This document shows, one piece after another, positions 2,395 to 64,000 of a DNA stretch of 64,000 nucleotides (its first letter is position 1; each line of letters opens with the position of its first letter). This DNA comes from a virus (lineage: Duplodnaviria; Caudoviricetes): the IMG/VR virus record IMGVR_UViG_3300031760_000005, positions 93,696 to 157,695 of that record; one strand, given 5' to 3'. The translations under genes were made by a program, and so were the position numbers. Under the pieces are notes generated by a model that saw only the letters and a program-made list of their open reading frames with translations, had not been told where the DNA came from and ran no database searches.

Positions 2395-3564
2395 TTAATC
2401 CATTGCACCAAATCCATCTACAGGTTTGCCATCATCACCATCTAATCCTTTATCTTGTAATTTGACTTTACCATAAGATGTTCCATTAGCGCCAATAACT
2501 TCAAATTCACATGTTGTATGCATTCCTGAAAGCCAACTACCGGTATTACGTGATAATTCTTTAATTTCAGGCATTTTATTGTCAGATTCTAAATAAGCTT
2601 TTGCAGCTAATTTATAAAGATTATCAACACCCCAAGATATACTAGAATAACTACCGAATGATTTTTCCAAAACCTTTTGAACATCATCTTTAACTTTTTC
2701 AATAGCTTCTGCTAATTTTTTAGCTTCTTCATCTTTCTTTATTTTTTCTGCAAATATCTTTTCCCATTTCTTATAGTTTTGTTCTGTTGCTTCTAAGTCA
2801 TCTTCAACTGTATCTAATATAGAAATAATATCTTTATATAAATCTGATTTTTTAAACGCTTCACGTAATTTCTTTATTTTCTTAGAATCTTTTTCATATT
2901 CAGCTTCAGCCTTTTGCCATACTTTATTAGATTTTTTACGCATGGCTTCTTCATTTCTTGAATGAGATGTTTGATCCCACATTTCTTGATATTTACTATT
3001 TACCGAATCAGTTTTTAAAATGTTAAATCTATCATTAAATTCTGGAATATTAACATTATAAGCTTGGGCAATAACACTTAATGCAAGATAAATAGAAAAA
3101 GTAAATCCTGTTGATTCATACCAGAATAATGTAACATCTTTATCCCATGAATTTCTTTTTTCTGGTTGACGTGCTTTTGTAAAACTTGCAGCTTGAATAT
3201 CATCTGTTTCTAATGCAATTCTTGCTTCTTTTGTTGCCTTTTCTACAAAATCAAAGAAATCTTTATTGCCATTTTCATCTTTTCCATAGAAATTATCAAA
3301 TGTACAATTTTGGGCATTAAGAATAAAATTATTATGACCTTGTTTAGAATTCATTGCTGTTTTAAGTTTATCTACAAGAATTTCAAAATTCTCGGTATTT
3401 ATTTTAATTACAGATTCTTCATATTCTTTATATTTATTCTTCATTTCTTCCTTTGTATTTTTAGGCATGCCCGGATAGAAAAATGGTTTACTCATTGATT
3501 GTGGTAAATCTAAATATTTACCATCTTCTTTTGATTCAAATAAAAAATCAATTAAATGTTTCAT
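2395..3564 (-). CDS. hypothetical helical protein, CTS-like N-terminus
   Basis: 389 aa ORF; MKHLIDFLFES. Confidence 0.8.
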   Translation of the reverse strand: MKHLIDFLFESKEDGKYLDLPQSMSKPFFYPGMPKNTKEEMKNKYKEYEESVIKINTENFEILVDKLKTAMNSKQGHNNFILNAQNCTFDNFYGKDENGNKDFFDFVEKATKEARIALETDDIQAASFTKARQPEKRNSWDKDVTLFWYESTGFTFSIYLALSVIAQAYNVNIPEFNDRFNILKTDSVNSKYQEMWDQTSHSRNEEAMRKKSNKVWQKAEAEYEKDSKKIKKLREAFKKSDLYKDIISILDTVEDDLEATEQNYKKWEKIFAEKIKKDEEAKKLAEAIEKVKDDVQKVLEKSFGSYSSISWGVDNLYKLAAKAYLESDNKMPEIKELSRNTGSWLSGMHTTCEFEVIGANGTSYGKVKLQDKGLDGDDGKPVDGFGAMD

Positions 3565-60595: not shown

Positions 60596-61483
60596 TTATT
60601 GTTTTGCTCCACAGAATGGACAAAATTTATATTTTTGATTAAGTTTTCTTCCACATTGATGACAATATCTCTTTACTAAATCATTACTATTAATTTGTTT
60701 TTGCGAAGATGGAATAATTTTGATATACTCTGTCTTAAATGGCCAATATTCAAAATCTTTGTAAATATTTTGAAATTTTTGATTGGAATGACTTCCTTCT
60801 TCAATTCGACCAGTTTCAATAGATTTTTGACGTGGTGTTGAAATACTTTTAGAAATAGTATTTGCTGATGCATAATTATAAGTAGATTGTCCTGTAATTG
60901 CACCTGAAATAGTATCTGCACAATTATTTAACGCAAGAGTTGTATCTTCCAAACCACGAGAATCAATTGTAGAAGCAGAAGCAGAATATTCAATTGAGGC
61001 ATTAGTATTATTATATAACTTTGTTTGCGCTAAGTTTTTAATATTATAATTGTAATTACTATAATTATTGTTATAATTATTGTACCAAGTTATATTTGAA
61101 TCAACTGTAAGACAAGGATTTTGTATTTTTTCTCTTTCTTTATAAAATTCGATTTTAAGATTACCATTGTCTTTAATAGCTTTCTTTACTTCTTCAGATG
61201 CTCCAACAGTATAAGTAGAAAATAAAAGATGTGATTCATTATCAAGATATCTGTCAAGCCAAACCCTTTCACCTGGACGTAACACAAGCATTTTAGAGCT
61301 ATAACTATTACCTCCATTAAAGTTAAATGTTACACCAATAGTATAATTATAAGGATTAAAAATTTGGATTTGAAATTCTGTACCATCATTCATATAGACG
61401 ATACGTTCATTAGAAGAATTTGAATACTCTTTTAATAAAGATTTGTTTACGGCAATTTTAGCCAATTTTTCAATGTTGTTCAT
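60596..61483 (-). CDS. zinc-ribbon domain protein
   Basis: C-terminal CHQCG......KFCPFCG; IETGRIEEGS.SNQ. Confidence 0.8.
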   Translation of the reverse strand: MNNIEKLAKIAVNKSLLKEYSNSSNERIVYMNDGTEFQIQIFNPYNYTIGVTFNFNGGNSYSSKMLVLRPGERVWLDRYLDNESHLLFSTYTVGASEEVKKAIKDNGNLKIEFYKEREKIQNPCLTVDSNITWYNNYNNNYSNYNYNIKNLAQTKLYNNTNASIEYSASASTIDSRGLEDTTLALNNCADTISGAITGQSTYNYASANTISKSISTPRQKSIETGRIEEGSHSNQKFQNIYKDFEYWPFKTEYIKIIPSSQKQINSNDLVKRYCHQCGRKLNQKYKFCPFCGAKQ

Positions 61484-61513
61484 AATTAATCATATAGATA
61501 TATTTTTTATATC

Positions 61514-61582
61514 TTGTTCCTAAACTTTTAAGTCTTTAAATTAACTTTCAAAAGGAGAACGTCTCCTCAGTCATAGAAACAA
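61514..61582 (-). ncRNA. candidate three-way-junction leader RNA
   Basis: P1 TTGTTTCTA(T)GACT/AGTTTAGGAACAA; P2 GAGGAGA-CGT-TCTCCTT; P3 AAGTT/GACTT. Confidence 0.45.
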
Positions 61583-61645
61583 ATGATTTATATATAAAAA
61601 TATAGTTTTTTTCTAAAATATGTTAAAAAATAAACAAAATAATAT

Positions 61646-61673
61646 AAAAATGGGGAACATTAAGTTCCCCATA
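61646..61673 (-). terminator. intrinsic terminator overlapping Pth2-like stop codon
   Basis: ATGGGGAAC-TTAAT-GTTCCCCAT followed by T tract (minus). Confidence 0.7.
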
Positions 61674-62013
61674 ATTTTAATTTCTTAATTTTTCTTTTTA
61701 ATGTATCATCATAAATATCTTTTTCATGAATTGCAATAGCTGTTAATTTATTATTCAAATCTGGTTCATAAAAATAAGTTTCTTTATCATGAGCTTCATA
61801 ATATTCAAGATAATTATTTTTAATATCTTCTAAATCAGCTTGTAAATAAATTAAATATTCATTATTCCAAATATCATGATATCGTTTGCCACTTGATAAT
61901 GACTCAACCTATCCATGCTCTATGATCCATTCGGCTATAGCATGTCCACCTTGAACTGCCCCATAAATAGGATCTAAATTTTTATCAATTAATATATATA
62001 ATTTATTTTTCAT
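61660..62013 (-). CDS. Pth2-like peptidyl-tRNA hydrolase with in-frame TAG at codon 35 (61909-61911); not in ORF track
   Basis: Hand translation MKNKLYILIDKNLDPIYGAVQGGHAIAEWIIEHG*VESLSSGKRYHDIWNNEYLIYLQ...FYEPDLNNKLTAIAI...KLWGT; family motifs on both sides of the TAG in one frame. Confidence 0.8.
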
Positions 62014-62054
62014 ATTATTCTTCATTAAAATCATCTAAATATGTATTTTCAATT

Positions 62055-62273
62055 TTAGATTTCAAAATCATCTAAATATGTAATTGACCAATAACCATGA
62101 GAAGCATAACTCATTGAATAATCATTATCATCTTCTTCATAACAAAGTAATGCTGGATATTTTTCAAAATCTTTTACTTCAAGATAATGACTTACTTTAT
62201 ATCTATTCCAACTATCAATAAAGCTTTGAGCTTCCTTTTCATTTCTAATTAATGTTTTGTTACAAAGTTCCAT
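62055..62273 (-). CDS. hypothetical protein
   Basis: 72 aa in operon. Confidence 0.6.
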   Translation of the reverse strand: MELCNKTLIRNEKEAQSFIDSWNRYKVSHYLEVKDFEKYPALLCYEEDDNDYSMSYASHGYWSITYLDDFEI

Positions 62274-62275
62274 AA

Positions 62276-63097
62276 TTATTTATTATATAATTTTGTTAAT
62301 ACTCCTTTTATTAATCCCCATACTGTAGTTTTATTTTGTGGTTTTGCAAATCCTTTAGTATGTTTTACTTGCGATTTAATTTGAGTTCTATCATACAAAT
62401 AATCAACTGTTGTTTTCCTTGCATATAATTCATTAATATCAATATCATTTTTATCTTCTTCTGAAATATAATCAAGAAGTTTAATGAAATGCCAATAACT
62501 TAAACAAGTTCTTTTAAAATCATTTTCATTACCACATTGACAATCTTTATTAAATTCTACAAAAACTTTATCAAGGCTTTCATCTTTATAATATTTTCTA
62601 AGATTTATTTCACAATTACAATATCCTTTACTACTAAATAAATCATTTAAAGCTTTTGAATGTTCTGAACATTGTCTAAAGAATGTTTTATATCTATTAT
62701 CTTCCGAATCATATCTTATAGACTTATTTATCCATTCATACCAGTAATAATCGTCAGGTTCATTAGTATATTTATTATTTTCCCAATCATATTTATAATT
62801 ATGACTTAAATACAATTTAAAATCATCTTTTGAAGTATTAATAATGTCTTTATAAATATCATAAGGTATAGAATGATATATACAAGGGCAATTACTATTT
62901 AAATATTTTTTGCATTTTTGAATTTCTTTATCAAGATATTCATTAACTTCCTGTTCATTAAAATCATGTTTAATACAATAATATACTAAATTCATACCAT
63001 GATAATAAAAACTTGTATTATCATTATTTGTACCTTTAATTGCTTTCTTCAAAAATATATATGAAGGTTTAGCTGTTTTATAATTCAATTTTTCCAT
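62276..63097 (-). CDS. hypothetical protein
   Basis: 273 aa. Confidence 0.7.
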   Translation of the reverse strand: MEKLNYKTAKPSYIFLKKAIKGTNNDNTSFYYHGMNLVYYCIKHDFNEQEVNEYLDKEIQKCKKYLNSNCPCIYHSIPYDIYKDIINTSKDDFKLYLSHNYKYDWENNKYTNEPDDYYWYEWINKSIRYDSEDNRYKTFFRQCSEHSKALNDLFSSKGYCNCEINLRKYYKDESLDKVFVEFNKDCQCGNENDFKRTCLSYWHFIKLLDYISEEDKNDIDINELYARKTTVDYLYDRTQIKSQVKHTKGFAKPQNKTTVWGLIKGVLTKLYNK

Positions 63098-63115
63098 AAT
63101 TTATTACTTATATAT

Positions 63116-63568
63116 TTATTCCCAAAAAATAATTTTATCAATATATTCACAATAATCTCCATTATCAGAAAGTTCATTTAAAATTTCGTCATCAATATAA
63201 TCTTCATATCCGGCGGCAAATAAATGTTCTTTTACTCTATTAATAAACAACACATCATCTTTTTGTTCATCAAATCGTGAATTACGATATGGGTAAAATG
63301 GAGATCCGTGAAAGTAATATTTCCATGATAAAATACCGCGATTAATCCAATATTTCTTACCATGAAGAATCCATCTATAATAAGTAATAAGATTGTGGAT
63401 TTTGACCTTTCTTTCATTAATTTCATCTACAATACTTTGTAAACTTTTGCCTTCAGGTCTATTTGCAAGTTTACGAGTTTTCTTTTGCTCTCTTTGTTCA
63501 TTTGCGAGTCGAGCGATCTCTACTTTCATTGCACTAAGTAATGCATTTCTTAATTCATTGTTTTCCAT
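63116..63568 (-). CDS. hypothetical protein (basic N-terminal helix)
   Basis: K.EI..LA.EQ...K..RK; first gene after leader. Confidence 0.7.
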   Translation of the reverse strand: MENNELRNALLSAMKVEIARLANEQREQKKTRKLANRPEGKSLQSIVDEINERKVKIHNLITYYRWILHGKKYWINRGILSWKYYFHGSPFYPYRNSRFDEQKDDVLFINRVKEHLFAAGYEDYIDDEILNELSDNGDYCEYIDKIIFWE

Positions 63569-63681
63569 ATTTGTAAATATTAATAATTTTATTTATAATG
63601 ATCTGGTGCTCTATAAATCCAATTCTATTCAACAAAATGAACACCATAAACAGTTGAACAGATTTAATAAATAAAATCTAT

Positions 63682-63723
63682 TTACGGAAAACCTCTAACA
63701 GCAATCTACCAATGTTGTCTCAT
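63682..63723 (-). promoter_or_regulatory. leader peptide uORF MRQHW*IAVRGFP with internal TAG
   Basis: ATG AGA CAA CAT TGG TAG ATT GCT GTT AGA GGT TTT CCG TAA after AT-rich aaattATG context like real genes here. Confidence 0.5.
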
Positions 63724-63741
63724 AATTTTACTTAATTTAAT

Positions 63742-63870
63742 TTATTTAACTTTATGTGATTCTCTAAATTCTTTCCATTCACTTTCAGAAAGCTCTGGTT
63801 GATTTTCTATAGCTTTTCGCTCTTCTTCAAAAATAGATAACCACAATTCTCTTGTTTTATTAATATCCAT
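63742..63870 (-). CDS. 42-aa hypothetical protein (start reassigned, downstream of tRNA)
   Basis: MDINKTRELWLSIFEEERKAIENQPELSESEWKEFRESHKVK. Confidence 0.5.
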   Translation of the reverse strand: MDINKTRELWLSIFEEERKAIENQPELSESEWKEFRESHKVK

Positions 63871-63872
63871 TG

Positions 63873-63943
63873 TGATCCCAGTAGGACTCGAACCCACCTC
63901 TGTTGTTTTAGAAGCAACGGCACAACCTCTGTACCATGGGACC
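63873..63943 (-). tRNA. amber suppressor tRNA, anticodon CTA
   Basis: GGTCCCA/TGGGATC acceptor, GTAC-AGAGGTT-GTGC D arm, GTTGC-TTCTAAA-ACAAC anticodon arm (one C:A mismatch), GTGGG-TTCGAGT-CCTAC T arm; CCA not encoded. Confidence 0.8.
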
Positions 63944-63950
63944 AAATTTG

Positions 63951-64000
63951 ATGACGAGGAGGGAATTGAACCCACAGCTGGACTAATCCGGTAGTCATCC
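63951..64000 (-). tRNA. 3' part of a long-variable-arm tRNA (class II), truncated by window edge
   Basis: GGA-TTAG-TCC variable hairpin then GTGGG-TTCAATT-CCCTC T arm; anticodon not fully in window. Confidence 0.55.

Follow-up and report, generated by a model that had tools for sequence, protein, structure and literature searches.

The 64,000-nucleotide stretch of DNA analysed here, referred to as the window, corresponds to positions 93,696 to 157,695 of the IMG/VR virus record IMGVR_UViG_3300031760_000005 (Duplodnaviria; Caudoviricetes), and contains a small gene with similarity to PTH2-type peptidyl-tRNA hydrolases whose frame is interrupted at codon 35 by a single in-frame TAG. An original prediction, made from the sequence alone, had described a Pth2-like frame broken by one TAG, about 1.9 kilobases (kb) downstream of a CTA tRNA on the same strand. 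Translation of the minus strand recovers this frame with the motifs that had been quoted for it, and both ARAGORN and Rfam place a tRNA with the anticodon CUA 1,858 nucleotides (nt) upstream of the ATG. The coordinates of that prediction were right but had been given on the plus strand, whereas the gene and the tRNA both lie on the minus strand (Table 1).

The TAG at codon 35 is the only internal stop of the PTH2-like frame, which has no frameshifts, and it separates the motif AVQGGHA from the downstream motifs WNNEYLIYL and FYEPDLNNKLTAIA. A search of the phage's own contig returned a single match to the protein, indicating a single copy. The PHROG family 3668, annotated as 'hydrolase', aligns with residues 1-106 and therefore across the TAG (E 4.8e-9), and dozens of phage homologues found with tblastn and HMMER match both sides of it; tblastn also detects homologues in the Lak megaphages. 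Judged by these matches, the frame is more than a product of chance. Codon 35 falls in the loop right after helix 1, where a hairpin that is missing from shorter relatives begins. A product stopping at this codon would have 34 residues and comprise strand 1 and helix 1 only, and no start codon follows the TAG within the gene. The invariant residues W49, N51, Y53, E83, P84, D85 and T91 are all located past the TAG.

A divergent member of the PTH2 superfamily

A structural model of the PTH2-like protein, obtained with AlphaFold2 (AF2) from 26 sequences, reached a predicted local distance difference test score (pLDDT) of 90.6. Comparison of this model with the PDB (Foldseek, VIA-align) yielded PTH2-superfamily structures for all of the top seven matches (1q7s, 3erj, 1xty, 1rlk, 1wn2, 2gax and 2zv3). 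The proteins concerned are Atu0240, MJ0051, human Bit1/PTRH2 and four Pth2 or Pth2-like proteins of archaea. These matches extend over 95-108 residues with Z scores of 8.6-9.4, led by Bit1 (9.4), AF2095 (9.1) and SsPth2 (9.0), and the next match has a Z score of 2.3.

Sequence comparison reaches the superfamily through distant relatives. No match was found in PDB sequence searches with either the protein or the profile of its close family, or by megablast of the region against GenBank phages. A family-profile search of 1.84 billion representatives retrieved 1,997 relatives, and PF01981 is matched by 19 of 39 distant representatives of the family (best E 9.9e-8). The profile of this distant family in turn matches Pth2 chains of the PDB with E values of 5e-5 and 1.3e-4, and aligns its avQaGHA and EP(D)...elTAiav with vaQGGHA and DAG...TLTAVAI of MJ0051. 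Across the 39 distant members, Q21, H24, E83 and T91 are invariant, the first two being located on helix 1. In an atlas based on a protein language model, the protein adjoins viral clusters carrying PTH2. The predicted Pth2 identity thus holds as a fold and as a remote profile match, and we classify the protein as a divergent member of the PTH2 superfamily and a putative hydrolase.

Conservation of the stop codon

Pattern scans of IMG/VR returned a total of 95 related loci, 72 of them with distinct proteins. In what follows, WIN denotes the gene of the window, L-numbers the IMG/VR loci, P-numbers database proteins and G000 the phage's own contig. In the DNA alignment, codon 35 is TAG in WIN, L004-L010, L013, L014, L016, L017, L018 and L025. 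Within the clade to which these genes belong (clade A), TAG is found in every relative that retains the loop, down to about 50% protein identity, with the exception of L012, where the codon is TAA. Clade A forms 15 rows (support 99/97) of a tree of 72 rows, whose deep forks are poorly resolved because the alignment offers 95 columns for these 72 rows. TAG is present in 11 of the clade-A rows and also in L010, which a pattern-matching miss kept from being included in the tree. Independent assemblies from different samples carry it as well: the proteins P0002, P0005, P0032, P0053 and P0060 translate solely 'with_TAG=Q', their codon 35 being TAG (P0060 is indexed in 76 collection blocks; 24 contigs were read), and the 'Q' that database proteins display in this column is TAG rendered as Q. 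A sequencing error or a private nonsense allele had been named as the ways in which the original prediction could fail. With the same codon being TAG in relatives and in independent metagenome assemblies, both fall away, and the PTH2-like gene with its TAG is confirmed as a real feature.

For the orthologues, either a glutamine codon (CAG) or a conserved TAG had been anticipated at this site, and only the latter was observed. Even though a single transition would convert TAG into CAG, there is not one case of CAA or CAG at codon 35 in the clade-A set, while for the invariant Gln21 these sequences use sometimes CAA and sometimes CAG. The tree length over which a neutral TAG would have had to persist is about 4 substitutions per site, and WIN and L004 alone are about 1.5 substitutions per site away from most other members of clade A. 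TAG has been lost only where the entire loop was rebuilt, namely in L011 together with L024, and in L015. Since TAG is retained and never exchanged for CAA or CAG, next to a Gln21 codon that toggles between the two, the stop codon itself is considered to be under selection. Diverged orthologues hence share both a stop at one codon and a conserved frame downstream of it, the pattern by which programmed readthrough is recognised.

The local context of the codon is conserved too, in the form (cat/aat)(tgg/ggN) TAG. Of 17 distinct contexts, 16 have a purine as the next base, as against 57% after terminal TAGs. This bias is no more than suggestive, given the relatedness of the lineages and the constraint that the protein places on the next codon. 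A similar context (cat tgg TAG att) surrounds a second conserved amber site, located in a short leader open reading frame (ORF) that follows the tRNA. The leader pattern M-[KRT]-Q-[FHK]-W-TAG-I-x-x-x-G-F-P-TAA was found in 16/16 clade-A loci examined, among them L011 and L024, in which the hydrolase gene is free of TAG.

Some individual loci deserve separate mention. The TAA of L012 (L012:3103-3105) may represent a dead allele or an assembly variant, and the tRNA of this locus is still CUA and identical to that of L014. In L004, the closest relative of WIN, the same gene has an internal TAG at 3319-3321 and a terminal TAG at 3103-3105, one codon being both sense and stop within a single gene. 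The terminal one falls within the loop that the terminator hairpin forms, with a T after it, and readthrough at this point would add 26 residues. An in-frame TGA occupies the codon of the invariant Trp49 in L149 and L162, the neighbourhood of L149 containing both a UCA and a CUA tRNA, and L046, L047 and L156 have TAG at other codons.

Linkage of the family to suppressor tRNAs

The tRNA(CUA) is the sole tRNA of both the window and the 157.7-kb contig, and has the shape of an ordinary cloverleaf, with a score of 45.6 bits along the entire general tRNA model. Its identity to phage tRNA-Gln and tRNA-Trp is about 65-69%, no closer than to other tRNAs, and it has G1-C72 instead of the U1-A72 of Gln tRNAs. 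The label 'Pyl' given to it by ARAGORN follows from the anticodon alone. The last 50 bases of the contig (window 63950-64000, minus strand) resemble the 3' half of a tRNA, with a T-arm GGTTCAATTCC followed by the acceptor end. Because the contig ends within this tRNA-like 3' half, the tRNA array would continue beyond it. In relatives, the CUA tRNA is preceded by tRNA-Trp(CCA) and tRNA-Gln(UUG).

The association between the PTH2-like gene and the suppressor was surveyed with ARAGORN over 3 kb on either side of every locus, and with nhmmer for missed copies. A suppressor tRNA at no more than 3 kb, always on the strand of the gene, is present in 65 of the 72 distinct loci (60 with anticodon CUA, 2 with UCA, in L015 and L143, and 3 with UUA, in Lak phages). 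In 62 loci no other tRNA is closer to the gene, as compared with about 20 loci expected under random rank, many of the flanks containing 5-25 tRNAs. The arrangement differs between lineages. In clade A, a homologous tRNA(CUA) lies 0.6-2.1 kb upstream in every locus with enough flank; in clade B, the suppressor is mostly found 6-360 nt downstream, four loci having it 0.7-1.6 kb away; the Lak phages have theirs around 600-700 nt upstream. The UCA tRNAs are homologous to the CUA tRNAs (76% identity to that of L145). This persistence through rearrangements and changes of anticodon argues for a functional tie. The PTH2-like family is thus linked to phage suppressor tRNAs, and this is the main new result of the analysis. 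Seven loci lack a suppressor, and in three of them (L013, L123 and L046) the flank on the relevant side is truncated or short.

In the Lak loci L001/L002 and L146-L153, the tRNA beside the PTH2-like gene is of the ochre type (UUA). A CUA tRNA is the one usually cited for the recoding of TAG in Lak phages.

Genetic code of the phages

The contig to which the window belongs is a 157.7-kb IMG/VR virus record with 26% guanine plus cytosine (G+C). Three relatives were taken whole for comparison: G001 (376 kb, 98% complete), G002 (410 kb, 97%) and G003 (236 kb, 83%). With translation table 11, the coding density is 0.90-0.95 in the own contig and the three relatives. Reading TAG as sense changes little, the density going from 0.909 to 0.906 in the own contig and from 0.803 to 0.817 in G001. 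TAG is still used as a terminator, by 2-9% of the longer ORFs (4/199, 30/565, 45/504 and 18/316 in G000, G001, G002 and G003, respectively).

In-frame TAG codons were also screened across the four genomes, requiring a stretch of 25 or more open codons both before and after the TAG, a location outside longer genes and cross-genome homology spanning the TAG. A tRNA-like array remnant aside, the PTH2-like gene was the sole candidate to pass with TAG aligned to TAG. The terminase of the window and its structural genes of 1,100-1,170 residues have no in-frame TAG at all. Of the marks of code 15, a gain in coding with many TAG-containing genes and the abandonment of TAG as a terminator are both absent, and a tRNA(CUA) is present. 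The phage and its three relatives use the standard code.

Other candidates of the screen were rejected. DUF285 genes had been picked up as ORFs with an in-frame TAG that is in fact upstream of the true start, and most of the rest were shadow frames within longer genes. A conserved short 'ORF with TAG' (G001:336960-337130, G003:72513-72734 and G002:688-813) is most likely an unrecognised or degenerate tRNA, with a GGTTCGATTCC T-arm. It was discarded as a coding target of the suppressor, being a tRNA-like remnant within the tRNA array.

Organization of the cluster

The features of the cluster are collected in Table 1. The order in clade A is tRNA(CUA), leader, 150-residue gene, variable genes and PTH2-like gene. 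No terminator-like site was detected between the tRNA and the PTH2-like gene. The hairpin at the end of the cluster is the only terminator-like site in 61300-64000, with 4 overlapping calls where 0.4 would be expected, and its fold energy is -16.5 kcal/mol (z -4.1).

Table 1. Features of the suppressor tRNA and PTH2-like gene cluster (window coordinates; aa, amino acids)
Feature	Position	Strand	Evidence or remarks
tRNA, anticodon CUA (amber suppressor)	63872..63943	minus	ARAGORN; Rfam RF00005, 45.6 bits
Leader ORF, M-R-Q-H-W-TAG-I-A-V-R-G-F-P-stop, 13 codons	63682..63723 (TAG 63706-63708)	minus	second conserved amber site
First gene past the leader, 150 aa, helical hairpin	63116..63568	minus	tblastn; same place in 12/16 clade-A loci
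Two variable genes, 273 aa and 72 aa	62055..63097	minus	ORFs; in 3/16 and 5/16 clade-A loci
PTH2-like gene	61660..62013	minus	117 codons plus TAA; translation; AF2 model
In-frame TAG, codon 35	61909..61911 (plus-strand CTA)	minus	context cat gga TAG gtt
Terminator-like hairpin and U-run	61650..61672	minus	overlaps last codons W-G-T-stop; closes the cluster

A proposed gating of the putative hydrolase by nonsense suppression

Judging from sequence, we consider it rather likely that the gene encodes a small ester hydrolase of the PTH2 superfamily that acts as the partner of the suppressor tRNA and whose synthesis is gated by suppression. In this large gut or rumen phage, the enzyme would probably be made only with a working UAG-reading tRNA, and the TAG looks like a natural switch rather than the mark of a broken gene. 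In the absence of suppression, ribosomes would halt after 34 residues of the PTH2-like gene. When charged and able to outcompete release factor 1 (RF1), the phage tRNA(CUA) would give rise to the full 117-residue enzyme. If the full enzyme appears only when the phage suppressor reads UAG, its level would track the activity of the suppressor, and since these phages use the standard code, the gate would depend on the one dedicated suppressor tRNA of the cluster. The enzyme would most likely cleave peptidyl-tRNA or N-blocked aminoacyl-tRNA by-products of readthrough, or else target the suppressor tRNA. In the former case it could serve for recycling, by clearing readthrough-derived peptidyl-tRNA; several relatives have a candidate transfer-messenger RNA (tmRNA) gene in the same array. 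Such a loop could have either sign, working as a supply on demand or as a negative feedback on suppression. Co-transcription of the cluster and readthrough are inferred parts of this scheme, and so are the identity of the inserted amino acid, the substrate of the enzyme and the direction in which control would run. As regards the original prediction, its proposal that amber decoding gates the enzyme is supported in substance, readthrough and hydrolase activity being what we infer, whereas the recoding state that it invoked does not extend to the genome as a whole, these phages using the standard code.

Several observations weigh against this interpretation. Regarding the protein, Pfam gives no match to it at E<=10 and PF01981 none in the own contig, and the column of the Pth2 G-K Lys, a residue considered catalytic in S. 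solfataricus Pth2, is occupied in the family by a conserved Tyr (Y17), because of which the chemistry or the substrate may differ. Regarding the codon, L011, L024 and L015 have lost the TAG and retained the gene, L012 has TAA at codon 35, and the PTH2-like gene of L004 also terminates in TAG; because of these last two cases, the gate is neither absolute nor universal. Regarding the linkage, L037, L038, L117 and L139 look like true exceptions with no suppressor nearby, and, many of the loci being related, fewer independent events lie behind the adjacency than its counts suggest. In addition, the own contig was judged to be 55% complete, and back-up stops show no excess near TAG-terminated genes (Mann-Whitney p 0.8), so that an independent footprint of active suppression is not seen.

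Among the alternatives, the one closest in weight changes the sign of the control. The enzyme would strip the amino acid or the peptide from the suppressor tRNA, and its own UAG would establish a negative feedback keeping suppression low and tolerable. This is in line with a family that adjoins suppressor tRNAs whatever their anticodon, with the retention of the 2-9% of TAG stops, which full suppression would damage, and with the TAG codons both inside and at the end of the L004 gene, as they would fit a partial suppression. Known Pth2 enzymes, however, act on peptidyl-tRNA generally, and the clade-B genes, which have no TAG, would need another route for such a feedback. We regard this alternative as unlikely, albeit a genuine competitor. 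A good deal less probable is a genome-wide recoding of TAG to Gln (code 15), by which codon 35 would be a mere Gln codon and the other recoded genes would be found in the missing 45% of the genome. The presence of a tRNA(CUA), the rarity of TAG as a terminator in the own contig (4/199), the rendering of these genes with TAG=Q by database gene callers, the homologues in TAG-recoded Lak phages and the real Gln codons near the loop in some clade-B members would all agree with it. Nevertheless, a sense reading of TAG brings hardly any gain in the two most complete relatives (98% and 97%), which terminate 30 and 45 genes with TAG and contain no second homology-supported in-frame TAG. The TAG-free terminase and large structural genes of the window point in the same direction, and a Gln codon evolving neutrally would have changed to CAA or CAG over some 4 substitutions per site of tree length.

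The TAG could also be kept for some other cause, such as an overlapping nucleic-acid signal or readthrough by a near-cognate tRNA of the host, a notion suggested by the conserved local context, with its purine in 16/17 distinct contexts, and by the resemblance between the contexts in the gene and in the leader. A need for efficient suppression would account for the shared context equally well, each TAG-bearing orthologue with enough upstream flank comes with a tRNA(CUA), and Rfam detects no RNA family at the codon-35 site, all of which makes this account highly improbable. We give even less credit to a decaying or split gene, in which the TAG would be a true stop, the 34-residue peptide the only product, and the rest untranslated or dead. 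The frame is indeed broken under table 11, L012 has a second type of stop at this position, and three relatives have a loop rebuilt without a stop. Yet the protein past the TAG is strongly conserved, at the invariant residues listed above, and remains so in the lineages that keep the TAG over about 1.5 substitutions per site, with no frameshift, no further stop and no start codon after the TAG.

Beyond the gating of this gene by suppression, a broader reading can be put forward more tentatively, at somewhat less than even confidence. The PTH2-like protein and the suppressor tRNA would form an old two-part readthrough module of large gut and rumen phages, kept through rearrangements and anticodon switches (CUA, UCA, UUA). 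In one clade, the UAG codons of the leader and of the hydrolase would constitute a circuit that measures and sets suppression. The code itself would never have changed, and the suppressors would be working regulatory parts rather than leftovers or first steps of recoding.

Comparison with known systems

PTH2 genes are known in jumbo phages, where a role in ribosome rescue after tRNA cleavage has been proposed (Iyer et al. 2021, PMC7824862). The phage protein resembles the characterised PTH2 proteins (PF01981; archaeal Pth2, PTRH2/Bit1) in its length of around 115 residues, its alpha/beta fold with 95-101 aligned residues, the Q-G-G-H-A on helix 1 and the C-terminal acidic residue followed by T-A-x-A. 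However, it is missed by the Pfam model, has Tyr17 at the position of the G-K Lys, aligns Glu83 of its E-P-D with the Asp of D-A-G, and possesses an extra hairpin after helix 1, the site of the TAG. Its family is, furthermore, fixed beside suppressor tRNA genes, and suppressors are unmentioned in PMC7824862.

Stop-codon recoding of the code-15 type is well documented in gut phages, including Lak, crAss-like and Garnet phages (Borges et al., 10.1101/2021.08.26.457843; Peters et al., PMC9523058). In code-15 phages the late genes are full of TAG, and phages of standard code with suppressor tRNAs have been seen as possible intermediates (Borges et al., 10.1101/2021.08.26.457843). The present phage has in common with them a phage tRNA(CUA), a low G+C content and rare TAG stops, as well as the idea of in-frame stops that delay expression until the suppressor is made. 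Contrary to them, its genome is not recoded, TAG being found in one gene and a 13-codon leader and still ending 2-9% of the longer ORFs. Neither a conserved suppressor target nor a hydrolase is described by Borges et al. (10.1101/2021.08.26.457843), where the term 'peptidyl-tRNA hydrolase' appears 0 times. Neither the link between PTH2 and suppressors nor the conserved amber codon of the hydrolase is present in PMC7824862, Borges et al. or the Lak-phage paper, although they may have been described elsewhere.

In the Jade-phage module for code change, the lysis genes are preceded by a suppressor tRNA, RF1 and a tryptophanyl-tRNA synthetase (TrpRS) (Borges et al., 10.1101/2021.08.26.457843). Both modules cluster a suppressor tRNA with protein genes that serve, or in the present case would serve, an altered decoding. 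The partner here is PTH2-like instead of a synthetase or a release factor, and the module carries the stop that it would read, with no recoded lysis cassette following it.

A further parallel is offered by prfB, the gene for release factor 2, which contains an in-frame UGA bypassed by a +1 frameshift and is autoregulatory. By analogy, the PTH2-like gene would be another translation-related gene with a conserved in-frame stop whose output reports the decoding of that stop. The differences are that the bypass would take place through a suppressor tRNA rather than a frameshift, and that the product is a hydrolase-like protein and not a release factor.

Phage suppressor tRNAs are currently viewed as tools for, or first steps to, a wholesale change of code. 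Here, the suppressor seems to act on a few conserved targets of its own while TAG is still a stop, and a dedicated hydrolase family accompanies it. Should this prove correct, it would provide a testable natural case of gene control by regulated nonsense suppression and a concrete role for the PTH2 genes of jumbo phages, and it would warn annotators that a lone in-frame TAG beside a tRNA(CUA) is not a pseudogene. The tRNA, the leader and the TAG context could also supply a compact building block for engineering amber suppression in Bacteroidota.

Neighbouring genes and candidate tmRNA genes

The 150-residue protein encoded past the leader was modelled with a pLDDT of 71. It has no Pfam or PHROG match and no fold match in the PDB, and the only look-alikes in the Atlas have template modelling (TM) scores <0.5. 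The 273- and 72-residue proteins have no Pfam or PHROG family match. A 42-codon ORF (window 63742-63870, minus strand; start MDINKTRELW) begins 2 nt past the 3' end of the tRNA and has neither a family match nor a homologue in the clade-A loci examined. The next gene downstream of the cluster (window 60596-61483, minus strand) encodes a protein of 295 residues with a C-terminal zinc ribbon and a middle part rich in Asn and Tyr, and its place next to the cluster is conserved in most clade-A loci as well as in G001-G003.

Candidate tmRNA-like genes were called by ARAGORN in the flanks of L004, L018, L019, L021, L048, L113, L120 and L149, and at G001:103338-103744. They are often located at less than 3 kb from the PTH2-like gene and the suppressor, the call in L004 being doubtful because of its odd tag. 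If these calls are real, the phages would carry several ribosome-rescue parts.
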